16,969 nt of DNA from a virus (Duplodnaviria > Heunggongvirae > Uroviricota > Caudoviricetes). The notes beneath the pieces were generated by a model, which saw only the letters and a list, made by a program, of their open reading frames with translations, was not told the DNA's origin and ran no database searches. A program made the translations under genes and the position numbers. Every line of letters begins with the position of its first letter. Position 1 is the first letter of the stretch. Location of the stretch: IMG/VR virus record IMGVR_UViG_2663763054_000010, one strand, 5' to 3'. Positions 281 to 16,202 of the stretch are shown here, in pieces.

Positions 281-290
281 GGAGTAACAC

Positions 291-1246: not shown

Positions 1247-1316
1247 GAGACCAGGCGGGGGAGAAATCCCTCGCCACCTCTGATGGGTCAGGCATCCTCA
1301 ATGCACCCACACTTAA

Positions 1317-1340
1317 CCCGCTTCGGCGGGTTTTTGTTTT
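1317..1340 (+). terminator. rho-independent terminator after hok (stem CCGC-UUCG-GCGG + T-tract)
   Basis: GC stem with UUCG tetraloop followed by TTTTTGTTTTT. Confidence 0.5.
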
Positions 1341-1466
1341 TATTTTCAACGCGTTTGAAGTTTTAGATGGTGCCGGAATAGAATCAAAAATACTTAAGTA
1401 GCGCGCAGGGAGAAGAGGGATGGACCCCGAACAGGGGAGTGCTATTTATCTGGAAGGATTCTGTTG

Positions 1467-1748
1467 ATGAAAATCGAAGAATTACGTGAAATTTTTAGTG
1501 AAGATGGCCTCTATACTGTGCGCGTTGAGAATGGCGCTATTGTCAGCCACTGCCTTCCAGACTACACAATTCTGATAATTCAGCCGTCTTTGCCAGCAGG
1601 CACGGGCGGCGCTCTCACGCATTTAAATCTGATTGGTACCAGCATCCCCCATGCACTGAAGAACAGGCCGAATGGCTCATTCAGTGTTACCGCAGGCGCG
1701 GATGCGAGGTTAAAAAAGCCCTTAGCCTCGACTACCGTCACTGGATAA
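1467..1748 (+). CDS. small prophage protein (93 aa); by position possibly Rem-like (recollection of Qin order hokD-rem-ydfU, not verified)
   Basis: ORF with ATG at 1467 (track starts at TTG 1464); identical copy at 7722-8003. Confidence 0.5.
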   Translation: MKIEELREIFSEDGLYTVRVENGAIVSHCLPDYTILIIQPSLPAGTGGALTHLNLIGTSIPHALKNRPNGSFSVTAGADARLKKPLASTTVTG

Positions 1749-1823
1749 TCTCCGTCAGGCTCCCTTACTCCGAACGGCCAACGCGTCCGTCCCGCACATT
1801 CCAGCAACGGATCTGGAGGTAAT

Positions 1824-2882
1824 GTGCGGGTATTACTTCGACCTGTTCTGGTACCGGAACTCGGTCTGGTTATCGTTAAGCCAGGCCGTGAATCAATGTC
1901 AGCATTCCATAACGGCAGAATACTGGTGGAGCCGGAACCAAAAAGCATGCGTAATCTGCCGTCCGGGGTCGTTCCTGCCGCTCGCCAGCCGCTGGTGGAA
2001 GACAAAACATTGCTGCCGTTTTTCAGTAACGCACGGGTGATTCGTGCTGCTGGTGGTGCTGGTGCATTGTCTGACTGGCTGTTGCGCCATATTAAATCCT
2101 GCCAGTGGCCACACGGCGATTATCATCACAGCGAAACCGTCATTCACCGTTATGGTACCGGCGCAATGGTGTTGTGCTGGCACTGCGACAACCAGCTGCG
2201 TGACCAGACATCCGAATCACTCGAGCAACTTGCTCATCAAAACCTGTCAGCATGGATGATTGACGTCATCGGTCACGCAATAAGCGGTACGCAGGAGCGT
2301 GAATTATCTCTGGCTGAATTATCCTGGTGGGCGGTCCGCAATCAGGTGGCGGACGCGCTACCGGAAGCGGTATTACGTCGTTCGCTGGGGTTGCGTGCGG
2401 AAAAAATTCGCTCTGTGTACAGTGAAAGCGACATCATACCGGGAGAGCAGACAGCCACCAGCATACTGAAGCAGCGCACAAAAAATATTGCGTTACTGCC
2501 TCACGTCCACCAGCAACAGAACCCACCACAGGAAAAGACGGTGGTCAGCATTGCCGTTGATCCGGAGTCACCGGCTCAGTATCTCCAGCGCCAGAAATCA
2601 CAACGGGAAGAGATGCCTGTATACACGCGCTGGGTAAAAACGCAGAAATGCATGACGTGTGGCAATCAGGCAGATGATCCGCATCACATCATTGGTCATG
2701 GACTGGGAGGGATGGGAACAAAGGCTGATGATTTGTTTGTTATTCCGTTATGCCGTAAATGCCGTAACGAACTACATGCCGGAGTAAAAGATTTTGAAGA
2801 GAAACACGGCAGTCAGCTGTTGTTGCTGATTCGTTTTTTAATGCACGCGAGAAATTCGGGTGTTCTGAAGTGGAAAGCATAA
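1824..2882 (+). CDS. YdfU-like (DUF968-type) prophage protein with C-terminal HNH-like zinc-finger nuclease motif
   Basis: GTG start 4 nt after GGAGG; C-terminus CMTCGNQADDPHHIIGHGLGG...PLCRKCRNELH (CxxC...HH...CxxC...H). Confidence 0.65.
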   Translation: MRVLLRPVLVPELGLVIVKPGRESMSAFHNGRILVEPEPKSMRNLPSGVVPAARQPLVEDKTLLPFFSNARVIRAAGGAGALSDWLLRHIKSCQWPHGDYHHSETVIHRYGTGAMVLCWHCDNQLRDQTSESLEQLAHQNLSAWMIDVIGHAISGTQERELSLAELSWWAVRNQVADALPEAVLRRSLGLRAEKIRSVYSESDIIPGEQTATSILKQRTKNIALLPHVHQQQNPPQEKTVVSIAVDPESPAQYLQRQKSQREEMPVYTRWVKTQKCMTCGNQADDPHHIIGHGLGGMGTKADDLFVIPLCRKCRNELHAGVKDFEEKHGSQLLLLIRFLMHARNSGVLKWKA

Positions 2883-3263
2883 ATGACCGAGCGCATAGAA
2901 TTTGTTTTACCTTACCCGCCGACGGTGAACACTTACTGGCGTCGTCGTGGCAGCACATATTTTGTATCAAAAGCCGGGGAGCGTTATCGCCGGGCAGTGG
3001 CGCTTATTGTTCGCCAGCAGCGGCTGAAATTAAGCCTGTCCGGAAGGTTGGCAATAAAAATTATTGCAGAACCACCGGATAAGCGCCGCCGTGACCTGGA
3101 CAATATTCTGAAAGCGCCGCTGGATGCGCTGACGCATGCGGGGTTGCTAATGGACGATGAGCAGTTTGATGAAATCAATATCGTTCGTGCTCAGCCAGTA
3201 TCTGGTGGACGTCTGGGGGTGAAGATTTATCCCATAATGCTTGAAGGGCAGGTCAAAAAATGA
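2883..3263 (+). CDS. rusA: RusA-family Holliday junction resolvase (variant a)
   Basis: ATG immediately after upstream TAA; RusA signature ...PPDKRRRDLDNILKAPLDALTHAGLLMDDEQ... Confidence 0.85.
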   Translation: MTERIEFVLPYPPTVNTYWRRRGSTYFVSKAGERYRRAVALIVRQQRLKLSLSGRLAIKIIAEPPDKRRRDLDNILKAPLDALTHAGLLMDDEQFDEINIVRAQPVSGGRLGVKIYPIMLEGQVKK

Positions 3264-4006
3264 AACTGGAAGATTTACCGAAATACTACTCCCCAAAATC
3301 CCCCGGCCTGACTGATGCATCGGCCTCAACGTCGAAAGATGCGCTGAGTATCACTGATGTGATGGCCGCGCAGGGCATGACACAGAATCGGGCTGAGATG
3401 GGGGTTTCTGCGTTCCTTGGGAAAATGGGCATTAGTATGAATGACAGAGAGCGGGCAACAGAATTGCTGACAGAATATGCACTCAGTCGGTGTGATCGCG
3501 TGGCGGCGTTAAGAAAACTCCCGGCAGAAATAAAACCGGCAGTGATGCGTATTATGGCTTCGTATGCGTTTGAAGATTATGCCCGTAGCGCGGCGAGCAA
3601 AAAACAGTGCCCCTGCTGTCACGGAAAAAAATTTATTGAAAGCGAGGTTTTTACAAACAAGATCCAGTATCCGGATGGTAAGCCGCCGGTATGGGCAAAG
3701 TGTACGAAAGGTGTGTATCCGTCTTACTGGGAAGAATGGAAAAAAGTCAGGGAGGTGGTAAAAGTTGCCTGTCCGGAGTGTGGCGGAAAGGGTGAGGTTT
3801 CCACCGCCTGTAAGGATTGCCGTGGGCGTGGTGTCGCCATTCATCGTGAAGAGTCGGTAAAACGTGGTATGCCTGTTATCAGAGACTGCCAGCGTTGTGG
3901 TGGTCGTGGCTATGAAAGACTACCATCAACGGAGGCATTTAATGCTATATGCGAGGTGACAAACCAGATAACACGCGCGTCATGGGAAAAAACAGTTAAG
4001 AAATTA
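3260..4006 (+). pseudogene. Q-like late antiterminator (variant a), 3' end replaced by IS2 after codon ~249; track ORF 3260-4093 has an IS-derived tail
   Basis: Identical to 9515-10261 then diverges at the IS2 terminus TGGATTTGCCCC (4007). Confidence 0.7.
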
Positions 4007-4017
4007 TGGATTTGCCC

Positions 4018-4923
4018 CTATATTTCCAGACATCTGTTATCACTTAACCCATTACAAGCCCGCTGCCGCAGATATTCCCGTGGCGAGCGATAACCCAGCG
4101 CACTATGCGGATGCCATTCGTTATAATGCTCGAACGCCTCTGCAAGGTTCTTTGCTGCCGTTAACCCGTCTGGTTTGGGCATGATACTGATGTAGTCACG
4201 CTTTATCGTTTTCACGAAGCTCTCTGCTATTCCGTTACTCTCCGGACTCCGCACCGCCGTGTTCTTCGGTTCAAGTCCCAACATCCGGGCGAACTGGCGT
4301 GTTTCATTAGCCCGGTAGCATGAACCATTATCCGTCAGCCACTCCACTGGAGACGACGGAAGATCGTTGCCGAAGCGGCGTTCCACCGCTCCCAGCATGA
4401 CGTCCTGTACTGTTTCACTGTTGAAGCCGCCGGTAGTCACCGCCCAGTGCAGTGCCTCACGATCACAGCAGTCCAGCGCGAACGTGACACGCAGTCTCTC
4501 TCCGTTATCACAGCAGAACTCGAACCCGTCAGAGCACCATCGCTGATTGCTTTCTTTCACGGCCACTCTGCCTGTATGTGCCCGTTTCGATGGCGGTACA
4601 GCAGGTTTTCGCTCAAGCAACAGCGCATTCTGGCGCATGATCCGGTAAACACGTTTGGCATTGATCGCAGGCATACCATCAAGTTCTGCCTGTCTGCGAA
4701 GCAGCGCCCATACCCGACGATAACCATACGTGGGCAGCTCTCCGATAACATGGTGTATACGGAGAAGCACATCCGTATCATCAGTGTGACGACTGCGGCG
4801 GCCATCCATCCAGTCATCGGTTCGTCTGAGAATGACGTGCAACTGCGCACGCGACACCCGGAGACAACGGCTGACTAAGCTTACTCCCCATCCCCGGGCA
4901 ATAAGGGCGCGTGCGCTATCCAC
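4018..4923 (-). CDS. insD: IS2 transposase OrfB (InsD), 301 aa
   Basis: Protein [34 protein letters not shown]... matches recalled IS2 InsD. Confidence 0.9.
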
Positions 4924-5246
4924 TTTTTTGCCCGTCCATATTCAACGGCTTCTTTGAGGAGTTCATTTTCCATCGTTTTCTTGCCGAGCAGGCGCTGGAG
5001 TTCTTTAATCTGCTTCATGGCGGCAGCAAGTTCAGAGGCAGGAACAACCTGTTCTCCGGCGGCGACAGCAGTAAGACTTCCTTCCTGGTATTGCTTACGC
5101 CAGAGAAATAACTGGCTGGCTGCTACACCATGTTGCCGGGCAACGAGGGAGACCGTCATCCCCGGTTCAAAGCTCTGCTGAACAATTGCGATCTTTTCCT
5201 GTGTGGTACGCCGTCTGCGTTTCTCCGGCCCTAAGACATCAATCAT
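4881..5246 (-). CDS. insC: IS2 OrfA (InsC), 121 aa
   Basis: [24 protein letters not shown]... from internal ATG of track ORF 4881-5291. Confidence 0.85.
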
Positions 5247-5472
5247 CTGTACTCCAATGACTAGTCTAAAAACTAGTATTAAGACTATCACTTATTTAAG
5301 TGATACTGGTTGTCTGGAGATTCAGGGGGCCAGTCTACGGACATTTTCTGCCTGTGGACCAGGAAAGTGCACGGGTGCTTTCCACTCCCATGAAGCCCGG
5401 CAATCCGCGCAGATACAGTAATAAACGAACTGACAGCAGTAAGATGGAGCGTTTCTTTTGAACAACCAGACA

Positions 5473-5715: not shown

Positions 5716-6089
5716 TGCGCCATGAGTTTATTTTACCTTATCCGCCGACGGTGAATACTTACTGGCGACGTCGTGACAACACATATTTTGTATCAAAAGC
5801 CGGTGAGCGTTATCGCCGGGATGTGGCGCTTATTGTCCGTCAGCAGCGACTGAAATTAAGCCTGTCCGGAAGACTGGCGATAAAGATTATTGCAGAGCCA
5901 CCGGATAAGCGCCGTCGTGACCTGGACAATATCCTGAAAGCACCACTGGATGCACTGACACATGCGGGAGTGTTAATGGACGATGAGCAGTTTGATGAAA
6001 TCAATATCGTTCGTGCTCAGCCAGTATCTGGTGGACGTCTGGGGGTGAAGATTTACCCCATAATGCATGAAGAGCAGGTCAAAAAATGA
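5715..6089 (+). CDS. rusA: RusA-family Holliday junction resolvase (variant b)
   Basis: 124 aa, same signature as 2883-3263 but divergent N-terminus (MRHEFILPYPP). Confidence 0.85.
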   Translation: MRHEFILPYPPTVNTYWRRRDNTYFVSKAGERYRRDVALIVRQQRLKLSLSGRLAIKIIAEPPDKRRRDLDNILKAPLDALTHAGVLMDDEQFDEINIVRAQPVSGGRLGVKIYPIMHEEQVKK

Positions 6090-6907
6090 AACTGGAAGAT
6101 TTACCGAAATACTACTCCCCAAAATCCCCTTGCCTGACCGATGCATCGGCCTCAACGTCAAAAGATGCGCTGAGTATCACTGATGTGATGGCCGCGCAGG
6201 GCATGACACAGAATCGGGCTGAGATGGGGTTTTCTGCGTTCCTGGGGAAAATGGGCATCAGTATGAATGACAGGGCGCGGGCAACAGAATTACTGGCAGA
6301 TTATGCACTCAGTCGGTGCGATCGTGTGGCGGCGTTGAGAAAACTTCCGGCAGAAATAAAACCGGTAGTGATGCGCATTATGGCTTCGTACGCTTTTGAG
6401 GATTATGCCCGCAGCGCAGCGAGTAAAAAGCAGTGCCCTTGTTGCTATGGGGAAAAATTTATTGAAAGCGTAGTTTTTACAAACAAGGTCCAGTATCCGG
6501 ATGGTAAGCCGCCGGTATGGGCAAAGTGTACGAAAGGTGTGTATCCGTCTTACTGGGAAGAATGGAAAAAAGTCAGGGAGGTGGTAAAAGTTGCCTGTCC
6601 GGAGTGTGGCGGAAAGGGTGAGGTTTCCACCGCCTGTAAGGATTGCCGTGGGCGTGGTGTCGCCATTCATCGTGAAGAGTCGGTAAAACGTGGTATGCCT
6701 GTTATCAGAGACTGCCAGCGTTGTGGTGGTCGTGGCTATGAAAGACTACCATCAACGGAGGCATTTAATGCTATATGCGAGGTGACAAACCAGATAACAC
6801 GCGCGTCATGGGAAAAAACAGTTAAGAAATTTTATGATGCGCTGGTGACCCGGTTTGATATTGAAGAAGCATGGGCTGAGCGGCAGTTAAAAAAGGTAAC
6901 TAGGTAA
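6086..6907 (+). CDS. Q-like late antiterminator (variant b), 273 aa with CxxC zinc-finger repeats
   Basis: ATGA overlap with rusA; CPCC..CPECGGKG..CKDCRGRG..CQRCGGRG motifs; followed by promoter + short terminator (PR'/tR' layout). Confidence 0.65.
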   Translation: MKLEDLPKYYSPKSPCLTDASASTSKDALSITDVMAAQGMTQNRAEMGFSAFLGKMGISMNDRARATELLADYALSRCDRVAALRKLPAEIKPVVMRIMASYAFEDYARSAASKKQCPCCYGEKFIESVVFTNKVQYPDGKPPVWAKCTKGVYPSYWEEWKKVREVVKVACPECGGKGEVSTACKDCRGRGVAIHREESVKRGMPVIRDCQRCGGRGYERLPSTEAFNAICEVTNQITRASWEKTVKKFYDALVTRFDIEEAWAERQLKKVTR

Positions 6908-6912
6908 CAAGG

Positions 6913-6940
6913 TTGATTTTTCCGGAATCTGTGGTAAATT
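6913..6940 (+). promoter_or_regulatory. candidate late promoter PR' (TTGATT-16 nt-TAAATT) just downstream of Q
   Basis: sigma70-like hexamers; position matches lambdoid Q/qut/PR' organisation; copies at 10342-10369 and 14901-14928. Confidence 0.35.
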
Positions 6941-6989
6941 CGTCATAACGATGGGCGTTTTATGCCTGACGTTAGAAGAGTTTCTACAA

Positions 6990-7012
6990 CCCGCCGCCGA
7001 GCGGGTTTTTTA
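6990..7012 (+). terminator. tR'-like rho-independent terminator (CCCGC-loop-GCGGG + T6)
   Basis: GC-rich hairpin plus TTTTTT about 45-60 nt downstream of the candidate PR'. Confidence 0.6.
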
Positions 7013-7131
7013 TGACTGAAATCGCGTCAGTACAGTAAACGCGCTGGTGGCGGTGAATACCTGTCTTTCAGCTTGCTGGCTTTTTCGACAAGAGTTATTG
7101 GTGTGTCACGTTAACCGGAAAAGGAAAAGAC

Positions 7132-7329
7132 ATGCTAAAACAGCAGGATATGACAGAAACCGCCAGAGTGGTGTTTAATGAATTAAGCGTTACCGAACCG
7201 GCGACAGTCGGGGAGATAGCGCAGAATACTTACCTTTCACGCGAACGCTGCCAGTTAATACTGACCCAGCTGGTTATGGCGGGTCTGGCAGACTATCAGT
7301 TCGGTTGTTACAGACGCCTTCCGCAGTGA
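7132..7329 (+). CDS. small protein (65 aa), possibly helix-turn-helix-like (weak guess)
   Basis: AAAGGAAAAG RBS before ATG; stop inside terminator hairpin; identical copy at 10561-10758. Confidence 0.45.
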   Translation: MLKQQDMTETARVVFNELSVTEPATVGEIAQNTYLSRERCQLILTQLVMAGLADYQFGCYRRLPQ

Positions 7330-7340
7330 AGGCTTTTTTA
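7316..7340 (+). terminator. rho-independent terminator (GCCTTC-loop-GAAGGC + T6)
   Basis: Perfect 6-bp stem followed by TTTTTT; copy at 10745-10769. Confidence 0.55.
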
Positions 7341-7479
7341 TTTGTGGTAAATGGGCGGCTGGTGGGTGTTAGGGGCACCCACCAGCCATCTGCTCATGCG
7401 TTGGGTTCACAAGCAAACCTCAGGCCCACTGCTTTGCGCAAAAGCAGAATGAGCCTATCAGAGACAGGCTTAATGATCC

Positions 7480-7585
7480 ATGCTTAATACTGTAAAAATA
7501 TCCAGTTGTGAGTTAATCAACGCCGACTGCCTGGAATTTATCCGGTCGTTACCCGAAAATTCTGTTGACCTGATAGTCACGGACC
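7480..7585 (+). pseudogene. 5' fragment (first 35 codons) of the DPPY DNA methyltransferase, cut at a duplication junction
   Basis: Identical to 10909-11014 then switches at 7586 to sequence identical to 1332 onward. Confidence 0.75.
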
Positions 7586-7721
7586 ATTTTGTTTTTATTT
7601 TCAACGCGTTTGAAGTTTTAGATGGTGCCGGAATAGAATCAAAAATACTTAAGTAGCGCGCAGGGAGAAGAGGGATGGACCCCGAACAGGGGAGTGCTAT
7701 TTATCTGGAAGGATTCTGTTG

Positions 7722-8003
7722 ATGAAAATCGAAGAATTACGTGAAATTTTTAGTGAAGATGGCCTCTATACTGTGCGCGTTGAGAATGGCGCTATTGTCA
7801 GCCACTGCCTTCCAGACTACACAATTCTGATAATTCAGCCGTCTTTGCCAGCAGGCACGGGCGGCGCTCTCACGCATTTAAATCTGATTGGTACCAGCAT
7901 CCCCCATGCACTGAAGAACAGGCCGAATGGCTCATTCAGTGTTACCGCAGGCGCGGATGCGAGGTTAAAAAAGCCCTTAGCCTCGACTACCGTCACTGGA
8001 TAA
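7722..8003 (+). CDS. small prophage protein, copy of 1467-1748
   Basis: Identical protein. Confidence 0.5.
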   Translation: MKIEELREIFSEDGLYTVRVENGAIVSHCLPDYTILIIQPSLPAGTGGALTHLNLIGTSIPHALKNRPNGSFSVTAGADARLKKPLASTTVTG

Positions 8004-8078
8004 TCTCCGTCAGGCTCCCTTACTCCGAACGGCCAACGCGTCCGTCCCGCACATTCCAGCAACGGATCTGGAGGTAAT

Positions 8079-9137
8079 GTGCGGGTATTACTTCGACCTG
8101 TTCTGGTACCGGAACTCGGTCTGGTTATCGTTAAGCCAGGCCGTGAATCAATGTCAGCATTCCATAACGGCAGAATACTGGTGGAGCCGGAACCAAAAAG
8201 CATGCGTAATCTGCCGTCCGGGGTCGTTCCTGCCGCTCGCCAGCCGCTGGTGGAAGACAAAACATTGCTGCCGTTTTTCAGTAACGCACGGGTGATTCGT
8301 GCTGCTGGTGGTGCTGGTGCATTGTCTGACTGGCTGTTGCGCCATATTAAATCCTGCCAGTGGCCACACGGCGATTATCATCACAGCGAAACCGTCATTC
8401 ACCGTTATGGTACCGGCGCAATGGTGTTGTGCTGGCACTGCGACAACCAGCTGCGTGACCAGACATCCGAATCACTCGAGCAACTTGCTCATCAAAACCT
8501 GTCAGCATGGATGATTGACGTCATCGGTCACGCAATAAGCGGTACGCAGGAGCGTGAATTATCTCTGGCTGAATTATCCTGGTGGGCGGTCCGCAATCAG
8601 GTGGCGGACGCGCTACCGGAAGCGGTATTACGTCGTTCGCTGGGGTTGCGTGCGGAAAAAATTCGCTCTGTGTACAGTGAAAGCGACATCATACCGGGAG
8701 AGCAGACAGCCACCAGCATACTGAAGCAGCGCACAAAAAATATTGCGTTACTGCCTCACGTCCACCAGCAACAGAACCCACCACAGGAAAAGACGGTGGT
8801 CAGCATTGCCGTTGATCCGGAGTCACCGGCTCAGTATCTCCAGCGCCAGAAATCACAACGGGAAGAGATGCCTGTATACACGCGCTGGGTAAAAACGCAG
8901 AAATGCATGACGTGTGGCAATCAGGCAGATGATCCGCATCACATCATTGGTCATGGACTGGGAGGGATGGGAACAAAGGCTGATGATTTGTTTGTTATTC
9001 CGTTATGCCGTAAATGCCGTAACGAACTACATGCCGGAGTAAAAGATTTTGAAGAGAAACACGGCAGTCAGCTGTTGTTGCTGATTCGTTTTTTAATGCA
9101 CGCGAGAAATTCGGGTGTTCTGAAGTGGAAAGCATAA
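8079..9137 (+). CDS. YdfU-like protein with HNH-like motif, copy of 1824-2882
   Basis: Identical protein. Confidence 0.65.
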   Translation: MRVLLRPVLVPELGLVIVKPGRESMSAFHNGRILVEPEPKSMRNLPSGVVPAARQPLVEDKTLLPFFSNARVIRAAGGAGALSDWLLRHIKSCQWPHGDYHHSETVIHRYGTGAMVLCWHCDNQLRDQTSESLEQLAHQNLSAWMIDVIGHAISGTQERELSLAELSWWAVRNQVADALPEAVLRRSLGLRAEKIRSVYSESDIIPGEQTATSILKQRTKNIALLPHVHQQQNPPQEKTVVSIAVDPESPAQYLQRQKSQREEMPVYTRWVKTQKCMTCGNQADDPHHIIGHGLGGMGTKADDLFVIPLCRKCRNELHAGVKDFEEKHGSQLLLLIRFLMHARNSGVLKWKA

Positions 9138-9518
9138 ATGACCGAGCGCATAGAATTTGTTTTACCTTACCCGCCGACGGTGAACACTTACTGGCGTCGT
9201 CGTGGCAGCACATATTTTGTATCAAAAGCCGGGGAGCGTTATCGCCGGGCAGTGGCGCTTATTGTTCGCCAGCAGCGGCTGAAATTAAGCCTGTCCGGAA
9301 GGTTGGCAATAAAAATTATTGCAGAACCACCGGATAAGCGCCGCCGTGACCTGGACAATATTCTGAAAGCGCCGCTGGATGCGCTGACGCATGCGGGGTT
9401 GCTAATGGACGATGAGCAGTTTGATGAAATCAATATCGTTCGTGCTCAGCCAGTATCTGGTGGACGTCTGGGGGTGAAGATTTATCCCATAATGCTTGAA
9501 GGGCAGGTCAAAAAATGA
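9138..9518 (+). CDS. rusA: RusA-family resolvase (variant a), second copy
   Basis: Identical to 2883-3263. Confidence 0.85.
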   Translation: MTERIEFVLPYPPTVNTYWRRRGSTYFVSKAGERYRRAVALIVRQQRLKLSLSGRLAIKIIAEPPDKRRRDLDNILKAPLDALTHAGLLMDDEQFDEINIVRAQPVSGGRLGVKIYPIMLEGQVKK

Positions 9519-10336
9519 AACTGGAAGATTTACCGAAATACTACTCCCCAAAATCCCCCGGCCTGACTGATGCATCGGCCTCAACGTCGAAAGATGCGCT
9601 GAGTATCACTGATGTGATGGCCGCGCAGGGCATGACACAGAATCGGGCTGAGATGGGGGTTTCTGCGTTCCTTGGGAAAATGGGCATTAGTATGAATGAC
9701 AGAGAGCGGGCAACAGAATTGCTGACAGAATATGCACTCAGTCGGTGTGATCGCGTGGCGGCGTTAAGAAAACTCCCGGCAGAAATAAAACCGGCAGTGA
9801 TGCGTATTATGGCTTCGTATGCGTTTGAAGATTATGCCCGTAGCGCGGCGAGCAAAAAACAGTGCCCCTGCTGTCACGGAAAAAAATTTATTGAAAGCGA
9901 GGTTTTTACAAACAAGATCCAGTATCCGGATGGTAAGCCGCCGGTATGGGCAAAGTGTACGAAAGGTGTGTATCCGTCTTACTGGGAAGAATGGAAAAAA
10001 GTCAGGGAGGTGGTAAAAGTTGCCTGTCCGGAGTGTGGCGGAAAGGGTGAGGTTTCCACCGCCTGTAAGGATTGCCGTGGGCGTGGTGTCGCCATTCATC
10101 GTGAAGAGTCGGTAAAACGTGGTATGCCTGTTATCAGAGACTGCCAGCGTTGTGGTGGTCGTGGCTATGAAAGACTACCATCAACGGAGGCATTTAATGC
10201 TATATGCGAGGTGACAAACCAGATAACACGCGCGTCATGGGAAAAAACAGTTAAGAAATTTTATGATGCGCTGGTGACCCGGTTTGATATTGAAGAAGCA
10301 TGGGCTGAGCGGCAGTTAAAAAAGGTAACTAGGTAA
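9515..10336 (+). CDS. Q-like late antiterminator (variant a), intact 273 aa
   Basis: Same as 3260-4006 then continues with the native C-terminus ...KKFYDALVTRFDIEEAWAERQLKKVTR. Confidence 0.65.
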   Translation: MKLEDLPKYYSPKSPGLTDASASTSKDALSITDVMAAQGMTQNRAEMGVSAFLGKMGISMNDRERATELLTEYALSRCDRVAALRKLPAEIKPAVMRIMASYAFEDYARSAASKKQCPCCHGKKFIESEVFTNKIQYPDGKPPVWAKCTKGVYPSYWEEWKKVREVVKVACPECGGKGEVSTACKDCRGRGVAIHREESVKRGMPVIRDCQRCGGRGYERLPSTEAFNAICEVTNQITRASWEKTVKKFYDALVTRFDIEEAWAERQLKKVTR

Positions 10337-10418
10337 CAAGGTTGATTTTTCCGGAATCTGTGGTAAATTCGTCATAACGATGGGCGTTTTATGCCTGACG
10401 TTAGAAGAGTTTCTACAA

Positions 10419-10441
10419 CCCGCCGCCGAGCGGGTTTTTTA
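10419..10441 (+). terminator. tR'-like terminator (copy of 6990-7012)
   Basis: Same hairpin + T-tract. Confidence 0.6.
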
Positions 10442-10560
10442 TGACTGAAATCGCGTCAGTACAGTAAACGCGCTGGTGGCGGTGAATACCTGTCTTTCAG
10501 CTTGCTGGCTTTTTCGACAAGAGTTATTGGTGTGTCACGTTAACCGGAAAAGGAAAAGAC

Positions 10561-10758
10561 ATGCTAAAACAGCAGGATATGACAGAAACCGCCAGAGTGG
10601 TGTTTAATGAATTAAGCGTTACCGAACCGGCGACAGTCGGGGAGATAGCGCAGAATACTTACCTTTCACGCGAACGCTGCCAGTTAATACTGACCCAGCT
10701 GGTTATGGCGGGTCTGGCAGACTATCAGTTCGGTTGTTACAGACGCCTTCCGCAGTGA
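10561..10758 (+). CDS. small protein, copy of 7132-7329
   Basis: Identical protein. Confidence 0.45.
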   Translation: MLKQQDMTETARVVFNELSVTEPATVGEIAQNTYLSRERCQLILTQLVMAGLADYQFGCYRRLPQ

Positions 10759-10908
10759 AGGCTTTTTTATTTGTGGTAAATGGGCGGCTGGTGGGTGTTA
10801 GGGGCACCCACCAGCCATCTGCTCATGCGTTGGGTTCACAAGCAAACCTCAGGCCCACTGCTTTGCGCAAAAGCAGAATGAGCCTATCAGAGACAGGCTT
10901 AATGATCC

Positions 10909-11967
10909 ATGCTTAATACTGTAAAAATATCCAGTTGTGAGTTAATCAACGCCGACTGCCTGGAATTTATCCGGTCGTTACCCGAAAATTCTGTTGACCT
11001 GATAGTCACGGACCCGCCGTACTTTAAAGTGAAGCCTGAGGGCTGGGATAACCAGTGGAAGGGCGACGATGATTACCTGAAGTGGCTGGACCAGTGTCTG
11101 GCGCAGTTCTGGCGGGTGCTGAAACCTGCCGGAAGTCTTTACCTGTTCTGTGGTCATCGCCTGGCATCTGATATCGAAATCATGATGCGTGAACGCTTCA
11201 GTGTGCTGAACCATATTATCTGGGCGAAGCCGTCCGGACGCTGGAACGGATGCAACAAGGAAAGCCTGCGGGCGTATTTCCCCGCCACAGAGCGCATTCT
11301 GTTCGCGGAACATTATCAGGGGCCGTATCGTCCGAAAGATGCCGGGTATGCGGCGAAGGGCAGTGCACTGAAACAGCATGTGATGGCCCCGCTGATTTCT
11401 TACTTTCGTGATGCGCGAGCTGCCCTGGGGATAACGGCAAAACAGATTGCAGATGCCACAGGAAAGAAAAACATGGTGTCGCACTGGTTCAGTGCCGGTC
11501 AGTGGCAGTTGCCGAATGAAAGCGATTATCTGAAATTACAGGCGCTGTTTGCCCGGGTGGCAGAAGAGAAGCATCGGCGTGGTGAACTGGAAAAGCTCCA
11601 CCACCAGCTGGTGGATACGTATACCTCACTGAACCGGCAGTATGCGGAGCTGCTGAGTGAATATAAACATCTGCGGCGGTATTTTGGCGTGACGGTGCAG
11701 GTGCCGTATACCGATGTGTGGACGCATAAACCGGTGCAGTTCTATCCCGGGAAACATCCGTGCGAAAAACCGGCAGAAATGCTGCAGCAGATAATCAGCG
11801 CTAGCAGTCGTCCGGGTGACCTGATTGCAGATTTTTTCATGGGGTTGGGTTCGACAGTGAAAGCGGCACTGGCGCTCGGGCGTCGTGCAATTGGCGTTGA
11901 GCTGGAGACTGAACGTTTTGAGCAGACGGTTCGGGAAGTACAGGATTTAGTCAGCCAGAACGGATGA
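10909..11967 (+). CDS. DNA methyltransferase, DPPY (N6-adenine/N4-cytosine) type with beta-class motif order; no cognate endonuclease seen (orphan)
   Basis: Motif IV DLIVTDPPYF near N-terminus, motif I DLIADFFMGLGST near C-terminus. Confidence 0.8.
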   Translation: MLNTVKISSCELINADCLEFIRSLPENSVDLIVTDPPYFKVKPEGWDNQWKGDDDYLKWLDQCLAQFWRVLKPAGSLYLFCGHRLASDIEIMMRERFSVLNHIIWAKPSGRWNGCNKESLRAYFPATERILFAEHYQGPYRPKDAGYAAKGSALKQHVMAPLISYFRDARAALGITAKQIADATGKKNMVSHWFSAGQWQLPNESDYLKLQALFARVAEEKHRRGELEKLHHQLVDTYTSLNRQYAELLSEYKHLRRYFGVTVQVPYTDVWTHKPVQFYPGKHPCEKPAEMLQQIISASSRPGDLIADFFMGLGSTVKAALALGRRAIGVELETERFEQTVREVQDLVSQNG

Positions 11968-12007
11968 TATTGAAGAATTAATTACGCGTCGTTATTATGC
12001 GGCTCCC

Positions 12008-12083
12008 GGCCCTTTAGCTCAGTGGTGAGAGCGAGCGACTCATAATCGCCAGGTCGCTGGTTCAAATCCAGCAAGGGCCACCA
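12008..12083 (+). tRNA. tRNA with CAU anticodon, tRNA-Ile2 (lysidine) type, ileX/ileZ-like
   Basis: Cloverleaf: acceptor GGCCCTT/AAGGGCC, anticodon loop CTCATAA, T-loop TTCAAAT, CCA end. Confidence 0.85.
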
Positions 12084-12090
12084 TCACATA

Positions 12091-12167
12091 CCGCCATTAG
12101 CTCATCAGGAAAGAGCGCCAGCCTTCGAAGCTGGCTGCGCGGGGTTCAAGTCCCCGATGGCGGTCCA
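12091..12167 (+). tRNA. tRNA-Arg, anticodon UCG as read
   Basis: Acceptor CCGCCAT/ATGGCGG, anticodon stem CCAGC/GCTGG with loop CTTCGAA, T-loop TTCAAGT, CCA end. Confidence 0.75.
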
Positions 12168-12180
12168 TTATCTGCATCAT

Positions 12181-12257
12181 GCGTTGTTAGCTCAGCCGGA
12201 CAGAGCAATTGCCTTCTAAGCAATCGGTCACTGGTTCGAATCCAGTACAACGCGCCA
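12181..12257 (+). tRNA. tRNA-Arg, anticodon UCU (reads rare AGA)
   Basis: Acceptor GCGTTGT/ACAACGC, anticodon loop CTTCTAA, T-loop TTCGAAT, CCA end. Confidence 0.85.
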
Positions 12258-12271
12258 CACTTATTTTCCCA

Positions 12272-12300
12272 GGCTCGCTTTTGCGGGCCTTTTTTTTAAA
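12272..12300 (+). terminator. rho-independent terminator after tRNA cluster
   Basis: AGGCTCGC-TTTT-GCGGGCCT stem (one mismatch) followed by T8. Confidence 0.5.
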
Positions 12301-12514
12301 TGTCTCACAATTCAGACGGTTGACAGTTGTCTGTTTTGCGGGGAGTTTGTTAAAAGAAACTGGCATGGTGAATCCCCCTGTGCGGAGGGGCAATCAGCGA
12401 GTAGGTATATGGGATAATCGCGGATTCAGGTGCTGGTACTGAATTCACCGGGAGGCACCCGGCATCATGCAATGGCACATAGCGCCACTCTCCAGCCCTC
12501 TCCGGAGGGGCTTT
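12293..12514 (+). other. conserved ~215-bp structured non-coding element, copy 1; candidate sRNA or leader ending in a hairpin
   Basis: Near-identical to 15947-16170; several GC stems; no ORF conserved between copies. Confidence 0.3.
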
Positions 12515-12744
12515 TCTGTGCCGGATACATCACAGTTTCTGGAACCTTAGGTACTACAGTATCAGTCAGGGTGCTATATTTTCAGATGTGATGAAAGCCT
12601 GTCAGCAGGCAGGGCGTATCGGAAATGACCCAGTAGAGAAAACGTTGACTCAGATACCGGTGCTGAGTTACCGGGAAACCGGCATCACATGACCGCTATC
12701 CTGAGGTGTACTGGCAATAGCGGACACTACCATTTGTTCTTTTT

Positions 12745-13563
12745 TTAAGCAGCCATCTGATGATATTTTTCCCTGAAGGCTGCCGGGGAGATATTCCCCA
12801 GACGAGAGTGACGACGCTGACGATTGTAGAAAATCTCAATGTATTCCCGTATTACTGAGATGGCTTCATCCCGGTTATTAAAACGATAGTGGCTCAGGCT
12901 CTCATTTTTCAGCGTTCCCCAGAAGCTTTCCATCGGAGCGTTGTCGTAACAGTTACCTTTACGCGACATTGATGTTTTCAGACCAGACTGCTCCTGTATG
13001 ACCCGGTAATCGTATGCGCAGTACTGTGAACCTCGATCAGAGTGGTGGATTAGCCCGGCAGGTGGGCGCTGGCTCCTGAGCGCCATAAACAGGGCTTTAC
13101 CTGTCAGCTCTTTTGTCATGCGCTCTCCCATGGCGTAGCCGACAATTTCGCACGTATAAACATCTTTGATGCCAGCGAGGTACAACCATCCCTCCTGTGT
13201 GGCAACATACGTCAGGTCCGCCACCCAGACCTGATTTGGTGCTGTAGGAGCGAACGTCTGGTTCAGCAGATTTGGCGCAACTGGCAGATTGTGGTTCGAG
13301 TTCGTAGTCGCTCTGAACTTGCGTTTCTGCTTACAGCGTAGCCTTAGCTCCTTACGAAGACGTGCCAGTCGGTCACGACCAACGATGATGCCATTCTCTG
13401 CCAGCTCCGTCTGGAGCCGCCGGGTTCCATATGTTTCGCGAGTGCGGATATGTGCCACCTTAATCTCCAGTTTTAGCCGCTCATCACTTTGTTTTCTGTC
13501 TGAGGGTTCATGCTGTACCCAGTTGTAATAACCGCTCCTGGATACACCAAATACCTGACACAT
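12745..13563 (-). CDS. IS3-family transposase OrfB (DDE integrase-like), 272 aa from first in-frame Met
   Basis: Recalled IS3-family OrfB features; normally expressed as an OrfAB frameshift fusion. Confidence 0.85.
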   Translation of the reverse strand: MCQVFGVSRSGYYNWVQHEPSDRKQSDERLKLEIKVAHIRTRETYGTRRLQTELAENGIIVGRDRLARLRKELRLRCKQKRKFRATTNSNHNLPVAPNLLNQTFAPTAPNQVWVADLTYVATQEGWLYLAGIKDVYTCEIVGYAMGERMTKELTGKALFMALRSQRPPAGLIHHSDRGSQYCAYDYRVIQEQSGLKTSMSRKGNCYDNAPMESFWGTLKNESLSHYRFNNRDEAISVIREYIEIFYNRQRRHSRLGNISPAAFREKYHQMAA

Positions 13564-13598
13564 CGCTTCAATGGGAAATTGTTGTCGCCATTGTTCGA

Positions 13599-13842
13599 TT
13601 AACGCGTATTTTTCAGCGACTCCTGTGCAAAATACGCTGTTGCTTTTTTTAATATATCTCGCTCAAGGCGAGCTTCATTTAACGCCTTACGCAGTTGCAG
13701 AATTTCAGATTCCAGTTCAGCCACCGTGCGGGAACCAGGAGTACCGAGCCCTTTTCTGGCGGCGGTAACCCATTGTCCTAAAGTGCCTTCAGGAAGAGAT
13801 AATCGGGAAGCGCCTTCACTGATCGAAAGTTGATTTTCAAAG
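13599..13842 (-). pseudogene. IS3-family OrfA, C-terminal part only (...ENQLSISEGASRLSLPEG...ILKKATAYFAQESLKNTR)
   Basis: Track ORF 13599-14000 is chimeric: 3' part is orfA, 5' part is antisense rusA. Confidence 0.7.
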
Positions 13843-14084
13843 CGACTGAAATTAAGCCTGTCCGGAAGACTGGCGATAAAGATTATTGCAGAGCCACCGG
13901 ATAAGCGCCGTCGTGACCTGGACAATATCCTGAAAGCACCACTGGATGCACTGACACATGCGGGAGTGTTAATGGACGATGAGCAGTTTGATGAAATCAA
14001 TATCGTTCGTGGTCAGCCAGTATCTGGTGGACGTCTGGGGGTGAAGATTTACCCCATAATGCATGAAGAGCAGGTCAAAAAATG
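13843..14084 (+). pseudogene. rusA: rusA (variant b) 3' fragment, lacking about the first 44 codons
   Basis: Matches 5848-6089 with one substitution (RAQPV to RGQPV); upstream replaced by the IS. Confidence 0.8.
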
Positions 14085-14936
14085 AAACTGGAAGATTTAC
14101 CGAAATACTACTCCCCAAAATCCCCTTGCCTGACCGATGCATCGGCCTCAACGTCAAAAGATGCGCTGAGTATCACTGATGTGATGGCCGCGCAGGGCAT
14201 GACACAGAATCGGGCTGAGATGGGGTTTTCTGCGTTCCTGGGGAAAATGGGCATCAGTATGAATGACAGGGCGCGGGCAACAGAATTACTGGCAGATTAT
14301 GCACTCAGTCGGTGCGATCGTGTGGCGGCGTTGAGAAAACTTCCGGCAGAAATAAAACCGGTAGTGATGCGCATTATGGCTTCGTACGCTTTTGAGGATT
14401 ATGCCCGCAGCGCAGCGAGTAAAAAGCAGTGCCCTTGTTGCTATGGGGAAAAATTTATTGAAAGCGTAGTTTTTACAAACAAGGTCCAGTATCCGGATGG
14501 TAAGCCGCCGGTATGGGCAAAGTGTACGAAAGGTGTGTATCCGTCTTACTGGGAAGAATGGAAAAAAGTCAGGGAGGTGGTAAAAGTTGCCTGTCCGGAG
14601 TGTGGCGGAAAGGGTGAGGTTTCCACCGCCTGTAAGGATTGCCGTGGGCGTGGTGTCGCCATTCATCGTGAAGAGTCGGTAAAACGTGGTATGCCTGTTA
14701 TCAGAGACTGCCAGCGTTGTGGTGGTCGTGGCTATGAAAGACTACCATCAACGGAGGCATTTAATGCTATATGCGAGGTGACAAACCAGATAACACGCGC
14801 GTCATGGGAAAAAACAGTTAAGAAATTCTATGATGCGCTGGTGACTCGGTTTGATATTGAAGAAGCATGGGCTGAGCGGCAGTTAAAAAAGGTAACTAGG
14901 TTGATTTTTCCGGAATCTGTGGTAAATTCGTCATAA
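14082..14936 (+). CDS. Q-like late antiterminator (variant b), 284 aa; an 8-bp deletion removes the normal stop and adds an 11-aa tail
   Basis: Same as 6086-6907 apart from a few substitutions; ...AGGTAACTAGGTAACAAGGTTG becomes AGGTAACTAGGTTG; ORF runs through the PR' -35/-10. Confidence 0.6.
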   Translation: MKLEDLPKYYSPKSPCLTDASASTSKDALSITDVMAAQGMTQNRAEMGFSAFLGKMGISMNDRARATELLADYALSRCDRVAALRKLPAEIKPVVMRIMASYAFEDYARSAASKKQCPCCYGEKFIESVVFTNKVQYPDGKPPVWAKCTKGVYPSYWEEWKKVREVVKVACPECGGKGEVSTACKDCRGRGVAIHREESVKRGMPVIRDCQRCGGRGYERLPSTEAFNAICEVTNQITRASWEKTVKKFYDALVTRFDIEEAWAERQLKKVTRLIFPESVVNSS

Positions 14937-14977
14937 CTATGGGCGTTTTATGCCTGACGTTAGAAGAGTTTCTACAA

Positions 14978-15000
14978 CCCGCCGCCGAGCGGGTTTTTTA
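14978..15000 (+). terminator. tR'-like terminator (third copy)
   Basis: CCCGC-loop-GCGGG + T6. Confidence 0.6.
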
Positions 15001-15038
15001 TTGCGGAATTAATTACGGACCGTTATTATTCTGCTCCC

Positions 15039-15114
15039 GGCCCTTTAGCTCAGTGGTGAGAGCGAGCGACTCATAATCGCCAGGTCGCTGGTTCAAATCC
15101 AGCAAGGGCCACCA
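15039..15114 (+). tRNA. tRNA (CAU), Ile2-type, second copy
   Basis: Identical to 12008-12083. Confidence 0.85.
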
Positions 15115-15121
15115 TCACAAA

Positions 15122-15201
15122 CCGCCATTAGCTTATCAGGAAGAGCAGACGACACGATAACAGGGTTGTTGGTGCGGGGGCGGGTCCCCGATGGCGGTCC
15201 A
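15122..15201 (+). pseudogene. degenerate tRNA (tRNA-Arg-like ends, anticodon arm and T-loop disrupted)
   Basis: Acceptor and D-arm as in 12091-12167, but the middle has no anticodon stem and the T-loop is GCGGGT. Confidence 0.55.
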
Positions 15202-15214
15202 TTATCGGTATTCA

Positions 15215-15291
15215 GCGTTGTTAGCTCAGCCGGACAGAGCAATTGCCTTCTAAGCAATCGGTCACTGGTTCGAATCCAGTACAGCGCGCCA
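15215..15291 (+). tRNA. tRNA-Arg (UCU), second copy, with one acceptor-stem change giving a U-G pair
   Basis: Same as 12181-12257 except ACAGCGC for ACAACGC. Confidence 0.8.
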
Positions 15292-15401
15292 TATTCATTC
15301 TTCCAGATTCCTTCCGGCAGAGCCTTATACTGAAATATACCTGGCTCAGGATATTGTTGAAAATATTTTATGTTTGTCAAAAATAAAAGTTCTGTTAAGT
15401 A

Positions 15402-15946: not shown

Positions 15947-16170
15947 TTTTTAAATACTTCACAATTCAGGCGGTTGACTGTTGTCTGGTTTGCGGGGAGT
16001 TTGTTAAAAGAAACTGGCATGGTGAATCCCCCTGTGCGGAGGGGCAATCAGCGAGTAGGTATATGGGATAATCGCGGATTCAGGTGCTGGTACTGAATTC
16101 ACCGGGAGGCACCCGGCACCATGCAATGGCACATAGCGCCACTCTCCAGCCCCTCTCCGGAGGGGCTGTT
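15947..16170 (+). other. conserved structured non-coding element, copy 2
   Basis: Aligns to 12293-12514 with scattered substitutions; ends in perfect hairpin AGCCCCTC-TCCG-GAGGGGCT. Confidence 0.3.
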
Positions 16171-16202
16171 TATATTGATTTTGTCAGATGTGAGTAAACT
16201 CC

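Follow-up and report, generated by a model that had tools for sequence, protein, structure and literature searches.

The late control region of this viral DNA raised a simple question: what lies between the terminator tR' and the tRNA genes in one of its modules, and what would it do for the phage that carries it? A preliminary description of the window, i.e., the whole stretch of 16,969 nucleotides that was analyzed, had proposed that in module 3 this gap holds a discrete insertion with a small ORF and an orphan methyltransferase lacking a restriction partner, placed for late transcription and possibly protecting progeny DNA.

The block between tR' and the tRNA genes

Self-BLAST and pairwise alignment showed a 1,525-bp block between tR' and the tRNA leader of module 3 (10443-11967, plus strand), with no counterpart in module 4. 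The module 4 region 13841-15001 was collinear with 9274-10442 of module 3 up to the tR' T-run, and the homology restarted at 14999 (14999-15306 corresponding to 11968-12272); therefore, both points abut in module 4. This empty site (14978-15039, plus strand), found by tRNA scan, self-BLAST and alignment, contained the tR' hairpin and T-run (14978-15000) followed directly by the tRNA leader, with a tRNA(CAT) gene from 15039. Behind the block of module 3, ARAGORN and Rfam detected a plus-strand tRNA cluster at 12008-12257, composed of CAT (ileZ-type), Arg-TCG and Arg-TCT; the CAT tRNA is named tRNA-Ile in the RefSeq annotation. The cassette edges are the tR' T-run on the left and the methyltransferase stop codon on the right, and the junctions showed only microhomology of the 'AT/TGAA' type. 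The difference between both modules may reflect an insertion in one lineage or a deletion in the other; the junctions alone fit both.

The 65-aa ORF, two hairpins and 352-aa methyltransferase expected from the preliminary description were all present at 10443-11967, and the cassette consists of a winged-helix ORF of 65 aa and a beta-class methyltransferase of 352 aa, separated by an intrinsic terminator and a leader of 130 nt. The range originally given, 7022-11967, included the full cassette but also took in a partial second copy at 7014-7585.

Upstream, the gene for the 273-aa antiterminator Q of module 3 was found at 9515-10336 on the plus strand (Pfam PF03589 Antiterm, E = 1.6e-53). The tandem 8-mers GGTAACTA and GGTAACAA (10324-10339) overlap its 3' end and, by comparison with phage 21 (PMC8022706), may represent a QBE-like element. 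They are followed on the plus strand by a putative pR'-like late promoter, TTGATT-N17-TAAATT (10341-10369), read from the sequence; this matches 8 of 12 consensus positions, is under the promoter-scan threshold, and is assigned on its placement between Q and tR'. The terminator scan located tR' at 10417-10442 (plus strand), where the homology with module 4 stops. The tR' region is repeated in the window, with 100% identity between 6902-7020 and 10331-10449, and 96% for 14890-15008. A second intrinsic terminator was detected on the same strand over the stop codon of the small ORF (10745-10768; hairpin 10745-10762 plus T-run), with the sequence GCCTTC-CGCAGT-GAAGGC followed by TTTTTT, and this position in other genera showed a hairpin with compensatory changes. 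Hence two terminators are upstream of the methyltransferase gene, which has none of its own before the tRNAs. Morons are recognized by their own promoter upstream and their own terminator downstream; here, a terminator follows the small ORF, and the promoter scan called no promoter within the cassette and nothing sigma-70-like in 10443-10560. This last stretch is conserved across genera. The late, Q-dependent placement was supported, with the cassette directly behind tR' in the Q-dependent late transcript.

Of 5,426 complete E. coli genomes, at least 1,043 showed the order Q, small ORF, methylase and tRNAs, and the empty arrangement, with tR' followed by the tRNAs, was about equally common (1,083 genomes). 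The filled layout was also observed in references of Shigella sonnei, and in Stx2a phages it was located upstream of stx2AB. Moreover, in Klebsiella, Salmonella and Buttiauxella the unit was found behind three other Q families, unrelated to this one, and it was also present in a Stx2a phage. The cassette is portable between unrelated Q and lysis modules, and it is a well-known prophage gene pair with an M.EcoGII-type methyltransferase rather than a novel one.

Identity of the methyltransferase and state of this copy

The methyltransferase gene (10909-11967, plus strand) encodes a beta-class N6-adenine DNA methyltransferase. The sole Pfam match of the 352-aa product was PF01555 (N6_N4_Mtase; E = 8e-42), spanning residues 29-340, and split matches to beta-class PDB chains were obtained. 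The motifs DPPY (aa 35-38; 11011-11022) and FMGLG (aa 310-314; 11836-11850) are arranged in the beta-class order, i.e., N-terminal DPPY, central target-recognition domain and C-terminal FxGxG. The MT-A70 fold with a DPPW active site, typical of the PNB-2 system (PMC10810198), was not found, the motif being DPPY and the single Pfam match PF01555.

When compared with M.EcoGII as given in the SUPREM supplement (a sequence with a few machine-reading errors), 324 of 349 residues were identical (93%), target-recognition domain included, and about 20 substitutions fell mostly in the central target-recognition region. The protein was also 95% identical to the enzyme of phage 1720a-02, named by the M.EcoGII authors as very similar to M.EcoGII (PMC5778455). 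The supposed unknown orphan is, therefore, an orthologue of a characterized enzyme, and likely has the same specificity. According to the M.EcoGII paper, this family methylates adenine in any context, M.EcoGII alone is fully active on DNA, and M.EcoGI, with 333 of 349 residues identical to M.EcoGII, is also non-specific, both being unexpressed in the lysogen (PMC5778455); this and a second report describe M.EcoGII as silent in the lysogen and harmful once expressed (PMC5778455; PMC12707154). Weak activity on RNA is reported in the SUPREM supplement. The earlier aim of finding a methylated motif is misplaced because the family methylates adenine regardless of context. The suggested protection of progeny DNA fared better, as an anti-restriction role was also inferred for the family by the M.EcoGII authors (PMC5778455), but the copy in this window may be inactive.

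The copy analyzed here could be a non-functional relic of a lambdoid prophage that decayed in the S. sonnei lineage, with a methyltransferase ORF that is open but unexpressed, catalytically impaired, or both. The protein carries S313L in motif I, the SAM-binding motif, with the FxGxG spacing kept. Of the 154 homologues examined, 145 had Ser at position 313, as did 99% of 103 distinct sequences, and Leu was confined to S. sonnei loci and a single viral contig; the substitution could weaken SAM binding. The surrounding prophage is interrupted by IS2 and IS600, and in S. sonnei references it has no early, lysis or structural regions; there, IS600 and IS1 flank the region, with no immunity or replication genes upstream. 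In the window itself, the module 1 Q gene is split by IS2, and one copy of IS600 is incomplete, being truncated at 13840. A truncated second cassette copy (7014-7585, plus strand) was identical to 10443-11014 at 572 of 572 positions, and contains the small ORF (7132-7329), the leader, matched by the leader covariance model at 7338-7491, and methyltransferase codons 1-35 (7480-7585); its break at 7585/7587 falls within the DPPY codons, and the following 7587-10260 duplicates 1332-4005 with 100% identity. It may be that no Q is ever produced in this prophage. Given S313L and the defective, IS-disrupted prophage, this copy is perhaps inactive and may be a relic. However, the methyltransferase ORF (352 codons), its leader, the two terminators, the tRNAs and the module 3 Q gene remain intact, only 3 positions of the methyltransferase depart from the family consensus at the 95% level or above, and the exact protein was found without frameshift in thousands of collection blocks, in S. 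sonnei genomes among the matches listed. We regard decay as a serious possibility, and lean somewhat against it; it overlaps with our preferred explanation, the late anti-restriction module, because it is about this copy and not about the family.

A sequence-specific orphan methyltransferase, acting epigenetically in the lysogen as Dam or CcrM do, or guarding against one restriction system, would be compatible with a generic beta-class enzyme distantly similar to CcrM and YhdJ-type models, and with the central clustering of the substitutions relative to M.EcoGII. The 93% identity to M.EcoGII, the non-specific and lysogen-silent behavior described for both M.EcoGII and M.EcoGI (PMC5778455), and a gene located behind two terminators with neither its own promoter nor a Shine-Dalgarno sequence make this improbable.

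Small winged-helix protein, structured leader and gene neighborhood

The small ORF (10561-10758, plus strand) encodes a 65-aa winged-helix protein, as indicated by profile and structure matches. It belongs to phrog_331 (E = 1.4e-37), annotated as 'TrmB family regulator', and had a weak TrmB match (E = 0.0026); 334 homologues were found across Enterobacterales. The AlphaFold2 model (pLDDT 90.5) showed three helices and a beta wing, with only two conserved Cys residues in the protein, and Foldseek retrieved generic winged-helix domains with TM values of 0.7-0.82. Some RNA-binding SelB winged helices were among these matches. About one third of the leader-methyltransferase loci have no winged-helix gene; therefore, this protein is a non-obligate partner.

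Between the second terminator and the methyltransferase ATG, conservation and covariation revealed a structured leader RNA (10776-10908, plus strand). Helix P0 (10781-10785/10853-10857) closes a junction holding P1 (10786-10797/10805-10816) and P2 (10820-10823/10841-10844), and is followed by P3 (10858-10864/10870-10876); P1 corresponds to a 12-bp hairpin at 10786-10816. Nucleotide identity of the leader across Enterobacterales was 80-85%, higher than in the coding sequence beside it; the small ORF there was 68-77% identical or absent. Double changes were observed at 8 pairs, versus 2.4 in shuffles, and when distant members were added they were found in 23 of 28 pairs, with 97% of the cells paired. 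The single-sequence fold gave z = -4.6. Of 118 assessable IMG/VR instances, 114 had the methyltransferase ATG 128-131 nt downstream of the conserved 20-mer. The junction nucleotides are very conserved, and mutually exclusive alternative pairings can be drawn, UGGGC with GCCCA or GCUCA, and GCUCAU with RUGAGC. No Shine-Dalgarno sequence was seen in the leader. The Rfam 15 search of 10776-10908 retrieved no family at gathering thresholds, and at E ≤ 10 the best weak overlap was P26, on the opposite strand, with 24 bits versus a 36-bit cut-off. The leader may be the only new feature of the cassette. We tentatively propose, being close to evenly divided on it, that it is a cis-regulatory RNA not described before and specific to methyltransferase genes of the M.EcoGII family, which could control translation of the toxic enzyme by way of a metabolite (e.g., SAM or SAH) or of the winged-helix protein, the latter in a com/mom-like manner.

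A small winged-helix gene immediately upstream and co-oriented could also suggest a two-subunit RNA methyltransferase, in which the small protein gives the methyltransferase an rRNA or mRNA target, in the manner of PNB-2 with the Stx-phage enzyme M.EcoPA8orf6770P. Such a partnership is described for Stx phages (Gong et al., PMC10810198), and the weak RNA activity of M.EcoGII and the SelB matches point the same way. We consider this very improbable: the published enzyme is of the MT-A70 DPPW type and encoded elsewhere in the phage, at gp5 (PMC10810198), whereas the cassette enzyme is a PF01555 protein with DPPY; M.EcoGII by itself is fully active on DNA (PMC5778455); the winged-helix gene is missing from about a third of the loci; and a terminator separates the two genes.

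The neighbors of the methyltransferase gene were Q, the winged-helix ORF, tRNAs, holin or HicAB genes, or stx2. No endonuclease gene adjoined it here, in intact relatives and phages, or in any context examined (more than 25 genera), and this upheld the earlier statement that the enzyme has no restriction partner. The idea that it is what remains of a Type II restriction-modification system with a lost endonuclease, to which the best PADLOC match, the 'Type II methyltransferase' model PDLC03265, would lend itself, is hardly credible with this neighborhood, a unit of fixed boundaries and no spare space, and only methyltransferase models matched by PADLOC.

Proposed control and comparison with known systems

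Collectively, we consider with good confidence that 10443-11967 is a portable, late-operon, two-gene module of many lambdoid prophages, in which a winged-helix gene, a terminator and a leader precede an orphan M.EcoGII-family methyltransferase that would act in late anti-restriction. Most likely, the enzyme would be expressed late, under Q, and would methylate progeny DNA as a protection from host restriction. In the lysogen, transcription from pR' would halt at tR' and stray transcripts at the second terminator behind the small ORF, and both terminators would keep the toxic, non-specific enzyme off. Upon induction, Q-modified RNA polymerase would pass both terminators, and the methyltransferase would be made along with the tRNAs, lysis and virion genes. 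Adenines of the replicating phage DNA would then be methylated whatever the sequence, and the progeny would resist many adenine-sensitive restriction systems of the next host. The folded leader probably adds a check on translation or mRNA stability, possibly with the winged-helix protein.

The cassette itself re-discovers a characterized, widely annotated phage gene and adds little. Its anatomy, however, with the methyltransferase gene behind tR' and the second terminator in a Q-dependent transcript and without a ribosome-binding site, would explain the silence of M.EcoGII-type enzymes in lysogens, and offers a concrete, testable account of an observation that the M.EcoGII authors left without explanation (PMC5778455). 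If the leader controls translation of the toxic methyltransferase, it would be a new class of regulatory RNA, associated with an enzyme in wide use as a reagent. The late transcript of Stx2a phages carries the leader just ahead of stx2.

Com of phage Mu is a zinc-finger translational activator. The com-mom pair also involves a toxic, broad DNA-modifying enzyme silent in lysogens, a parallel drawn in PMC12707154. There, too, the gene of a small protein directly precedes the enzyme gene, whose start codon follows a structured mRNA leader. Here, in contrast, the small protein has a winged-helix fold and no more than two conserved Cys residues, and its gene is missing from about a third of the loci; the parallel is no more than an analogy. 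M.EcoPA8orf6770P-PNB-2 (Gong et al. 2023, PMC10810198) is likewise a Stx-type prophage methyltransferase, acting on rRNA, with a small winged-helix gene upstream, but it belongs to the MT-A70 DPPW family, lies at gp5-gp6 and is non-homologous to the cassette enzyme. M.EcoGII and M.EcoGI, from the E. coli O104:H4 C227-11 prophage (Murray et al. 2018, PMC5778455), are also beta-class enzymes with N-terminal DPPY and C-terminal FxGxG, of similar length (349-352 aa), prophage-borne and without endonuclease partner, with 93% identity between M.EcoGII and the cassette enzyme; the present copy differs in about 25 substitutions, S313L among them, and in its location in a defective S. sonnei-type prophage remnant. 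The Q-hypothetical-'DNA methylase'-tRNA-stx2AB region of Stx2a phages and phage 1720a-02 has stx genes behind the tRNAs, unlike the present cassette, and the Q of a Stx2a phage is 126 aa, versus the PF03589 Q of 273 aa here; order, spacing and sequence are otherwise alike, with about 94% nucleotide identity, 95% identity in the methyltransferase and 63 of 63 aligned residues in the small ORF.

The cassette between tR' and the tRNA genes

The window is made up of four partial modules of a lambdoid nin-Q-late-leader region (DUF968/HNH, RusA and Q genes), interleaved with insertion sequences. When the Q-distal ends were aligned, modules 2, 3 and 4 stayed collinear across the hairpin CCCGCCGCCGAGCGGG with its T-run, which together make up the late terminator tR' (module 3, 10417-10442; module 4, 14978-15000; located by terminator scan and alignment). 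In module 4, the bases of the tRNA leader directly follow tR', and a tRNA with anticodon CAT, annotated as tRNA-Ile in RefSeq, begins at 15039, whereas in module 3 the same tRNA leader resumes only at 11968, right behind the methyltransferase stop codon. The two modules thus differ by a 1,525-bp block at 10443-11967, whose junctions showed only short microhomology (…TTAT/GACTGAAAT… and …ATAT/TGAAGAAT…). This block was either gained by module 3 or lost by module 4, the junctions giving no direction. It contains a 65-aa ORF (10561-10758), an intrinsic terminator (10745-10762 plus a T-run) overlapping the stop codon of that ORF, a 12-bp hairpin (10786-10816), and a 352-aa ORF (10909-11967) with DPPY and FxGxG motifs. 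The preliminary description had placed a 65-aa ORF, two hairpins and a 352-aa methyltransferase in a gap of about 1.5 kb between tR' and the tRNA genes, and the module alignment, together with the ORF and motif data, showed this to be correct. The range it assigned, 7022-11967, covers the cassette but also takes in a truncated second copy in module 2. This copy (7014-7585, 572/572 identical to 10443-11014) breaks off within the codons for DPPY, and a 100% duplicate of 1332-4005 follows; its methyltransferase gene (7480-7585) ends after codon 35 and is fused to sequence normally found downstream of the terminator located upstream of the DUF968 gene.

Self-comparison of the window showed that 1332-4005 and 7587-10260 are 100% identical, and that 5724-7585 matches 9153-11014 at 96.5%, 13841-15001 matches 5845-7013 at 99%, and 11968-12272 matches 14999-15306 at 87%. 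A complete IS2 at about 4007-5337 interrupts the Q gene of module 1; its transposase matches NF006918 (728 bits), and the insertion point lies 76 nt before the end of that gene. Since its far flank is a different prophage locus, this IS2 is a joint between two loci and no simple insertion. IS3-family elements, which we take to be IS600-type, occur as an inverted copy that ends at 81 near the start of the window, as a truncated copy at 12697-13840, and as one running from 16921 on. Shigella sonnei genomes, 53G (HE616528) among them, encode an identical methyltransferase protein. In these references, window positions 1-4005 run straight into 10261-13840, and module 4 lies about 0.67 Mb distant, in another prophage remnant; the four-module layout was absent from the references examined. 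An exact search of one-genome-per-species contigs for the junction at 7586 gave no match, and neither did exact-protein look-ups in public data for the Q::IS2 fusion and the truncated methyltransferase ORF, so that no public assembly could be identified as the source of the arrangement. Because the window's own junctions were not found in public data, the layout is either an assembly chimera or a rearrangement specific to this strain, for which insertion sequences and homologous recombination would be responsible; the cassette itself is unaffected by this question. Two of the three junctions (4005/4006, 7585/7587 and 13840/13841) are not at insertion-sequence ends.

Two further elements were noted in the window. 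One is a hok/sok-type toxin-antitoxin locus at 921-1246, which comprises an Rfam sok match of 112 bits (921-1096) and an ORF (1034-1246) whose counterpart in the S. sonnei reference loci was assigned to the HOK_GEF family. The other is the STnc100 sRNA family (Rfam RF02076), of which one copy lies downstream of the module-3 tRNA cluster (12334-12523, 124 bits) and another downstream of that of module 4 (15988-16177, 132 bits).

The methyltransferase and its winged-helix companion

The methyltransferase matched Pfam PF01555 (N6_N4_Mtase) with E = 8e-42 and showed the beta-class motif order, with some 150 residues inserted centrally; among solved structures, nothing nearer than distant beta-class methyltransferases was found. 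Over 349 residues the protein shares 93% identity with M.EcoGII, the sequence used for comparison being a machine-read copy, with a few obvious errors, from the SUPREM paper (PMC11551740, Supplementary Table S1). The phage 1720a-02 methyltransferase, an enzyme that the M.EcoGII paper (PMC5778455) names 'very similar', shares 95% identity with the window protein. At this level of identity, the protein is classified as a member of the characterised M.EcoGII-type family. Passages of the same paper report that M.EcoGII methylates adenine in any sequence context, and that it is prophage-borne, unexpressed in the lysogen and slows growth upon expression; the authors propose that it serves to overcome host restriction (PMC5778455). 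The methyltransferase-PNB-2 system of Stx phages described by the Koudelka laboratory was ruled out as the identity of the cassette, as it belongs to the MT-A70 family (DPPW) and occupies a different locus.

Three substitutions, S197G, V306I and S313L, set the window protein apart from the family consensus (at least 95%). S313L (codon 313, 11845-11847) sits in the F-x-G-S-G SAM-binding motif, where 145 of the 154 homologues examined carry Ser; apart from one viral contig, only the S. sonnei loci carry Leu. This substitution may be inactivating, and the window's own copy may be inactive. Given S313L and a host prophage that is defective and cut by insertion sequences, the idea that the methyltransferase copy in this genome is a relic has to be taken seriously; we consider it somewhat short of an even chance, and it is compatible with the family-level explanation.

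The 65-aa protein corresponds to phrog_331, of unknown function, and has 334 homologues across Enterobacterales, often annotated as 'TrmB family regulator' or 'DprA-like winged helix'. Its AlphaFold2 model (23 sequences, mean pLDDT 90.5) showed three helices and a two-strand wing, and Foldseek against the PDB returned generic winged-helix domains only (TM 0.7-0.82), among them the N-termini of IclR and MarR, O-methyltransferase dimerisation domains and SelB. This answers the question of remote homology posed at the outset for this ORF with a generic winged helix and nothing more specific; the predicted fold is that of a winged-helix nucleic-acid binder, with no narrower assignment. The small ORF lies directly upstream in about 29 of some 45 Enterobacterales methyltransferase loci. 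Since it is missing in about 15 of them and M.EcoGII is active alone, the small protein is an accessory and not a methyltransferase subunit.

Probable late expression and distribution of the module

The methyltransferase gene follows directly behind tR', with a second canonical terminator between it and the small ORF, and the promoter scan called no promoter inside the cassette. Between Q (9515-10336, 273 aa) and tR' lie a putative pR'-like late promoter, TTGATT-N17-TAAATT (10341-10369), and a tandem 8-mer (10324-10339) that resembles a Q-binding element. In the absence of Q, transcripts would end at tR'; polymerase modified by Q would pass both terminators, and the methyltransferase would be made late along with the tRNAs, its activity being timed to phage DNA replication and packaging. 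Such Q-dependent read-through of both terminators would explain the reported silence in the lysogen. It also fits a remark in the phage L genome paper that intra-operon terminators may halt transcripts begun without antitermination (PMC8022706). The tandem 8-mer, GGTAACTA/GGTAACAA, overlaps the Q stop codon in modules 2 and 3 (6895-6910 and 10324-10339). In module 4 (14930-14940), an 8-bp deletion has removed one copy together with the stop codon, so that Q has 284 aa instead of 273; at this position, most module-4 relatives in E. coli are longer by 8 bp.

The segment of module 3 from Q to the tRNAs (9515-12600) was found at a coverage of at least 80% in 1,043 of 5,426 complete E. coli genomes, where the annotation reads antitermination protein, hypothetical protein, DNA-methyltransferase, tRNA-Ile and tRNA-Arg. 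The empty arrangement of module 4 was present, at the same coverage, in 1,083 genomes of this set. Many deposited Stx2a-converting phages carry the cassette upstream of the tRNAs and stx2AB. Beyond E. coli, the unit combines an ORF of 63-65 aa with a methyltransferase of 349-354 aa, the two being separated by about 150 bp, and it stands behind three other unrelated Q families: PF06323 (Klebsiella) and PF06530/DUF1133 (Salmonella and Buttiauxella). The downstream neighbours differ there, being HicAB plus a holin, or holins directly, and in Salmonella the similarity to the window begins right behind that phage's own terminator. As the unit recurs behind unrelated Q families and with varied downstream genes, the cassette is a portable module with fixed boundaries. 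No endonuclease gene adjoined the methyltransferase in any context examined (among them E. coli, Stx2a phages, Klebsiella, Salmonella and Buttiauxella), and PADLOC returned methyltransferase models only, in line with the enzyme having been described as lacking a restriction partner. The cassette is an M.EcoGII-type orphan methyltransferase in what is probably a Q-dependent late operon. The preliminary description was right in seeing a cassette between tR' and the tRNAs, and its interpretation as a late-expressed orphan methyltransferase was broadly right, but the cassette is a prophage module that has been characterised before and is very common.

The leader RNA upstream of the methyltransferase

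The sole element that may be new is the leader at 10776-10908, of which an identical copy is found at 7347-7479. Its conservation was assessed in about 45 loci from some 25 Enterobacterales genera, in which the 130 nt right before the methyltransferase ATG share 80-85% identity with the window, as compared with 70-80% for the methyltransferase protein and 68-77% for the small ORF, where present. The flanking genes are less conserved than the leader. Four helices were obtained with RNAalifold and in a hand-refined structure: P0 (UGGGC/GCCCA) closes a junction holding P1 and P2, and P3 follows after the junction. P1, the 12-bp helix that appeared as the second hairpin in the preliminary description, has an invariant 5' arm and a variable 3' arm. 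P2 has 4 bp, and covariation is seen at its closing pair, which is C-G in 22, A-U in 11, U-A in 9 and U-G in 4 sequences.

In the MAFFT alignment, 94% of cells were paired, and double changes occurred at 8 pairs, against 2.4 in shuffles, with 0/500 shuffles reaching the observed value; slid controls of the structure were 29-50% paired. A covariance model detected diverged leaders, with many compensatory changes, upstream of remoter methyltransferases in Pseudocitrobacter, a Vibrio plasmid and an unclassified gammaproteobacterium. In the model-fitted alignment, double changes were seen in 23/28 pairs, with 97% of cells paired, the caveat being that the structure itself guided this alignment. 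A tally of the per-pair tables gave G-U pairs over A-C mismatches at about 21 to 8, an excess that favours the sense strand, and single-sequence folds had z-scores of -3.1 to -4.6. In IMG/VR, the methyltransferase ATG lies 128-131 nt past the invariant P0/P1 20-mer in 114 of the 118 assessable instances. No Shine-Dalgarno sequence precedes the ATG. The UGGGC arm pairs with either GCCCA or GCUCA, indicating that alternative folds exist. A long-range helix, GCUCAU/RUGAGC, was 96% paired with covariation not above the shuffled control, and is possible as an alternative pairing only; a fourth-helix candidate (AGC/GCU) was weakly supported in the covariation analysis. A hairpin beside the start codon (ATCAG/CTGAT) was dropped on inspection of the alignment, about 10 loci having an uncompensated U-to-C change. 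The leader was also rejected as coding sequence: its indels are not multiples of three, and a 60-aa ORF (10734-10916) is not conserved. A 7-codon mini-ORF (MGGWWVL) is present in the leader of most genera and not in the E. coli/Shigella clade.

Some loci depart from this organisation. In Trabulsiella odontotermitis (locus L029, 2022-2181), a degenerate second leader, which scores 25.7 bits and has several broken pairs, stands before an unrelated ORF of 131-160 aa. This ORF is located between the upstream genes and an intact leader-methyltransferase unit, an arrangement that suggests gene insertion by recombination within the leader. Four IMG/VR viral contigs (L122, L160, L186 and L205) kept the P1 hairpin only, and unrelated AT-rich sequence takes the place of the remaining leader and the methyltransferase; the contigs are apparently recombinants in which the enzyme has been lost.

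No family in Rfam 15 matched the leader, and a literature search found no description of it or of late-operon regulation of this methyltransferase. The leader is probably a cis-regulatory RNA, and this is directly testable. The com/mom system of phage Mu may be compared with the leader-methyltransferase unit, as an analogy only.
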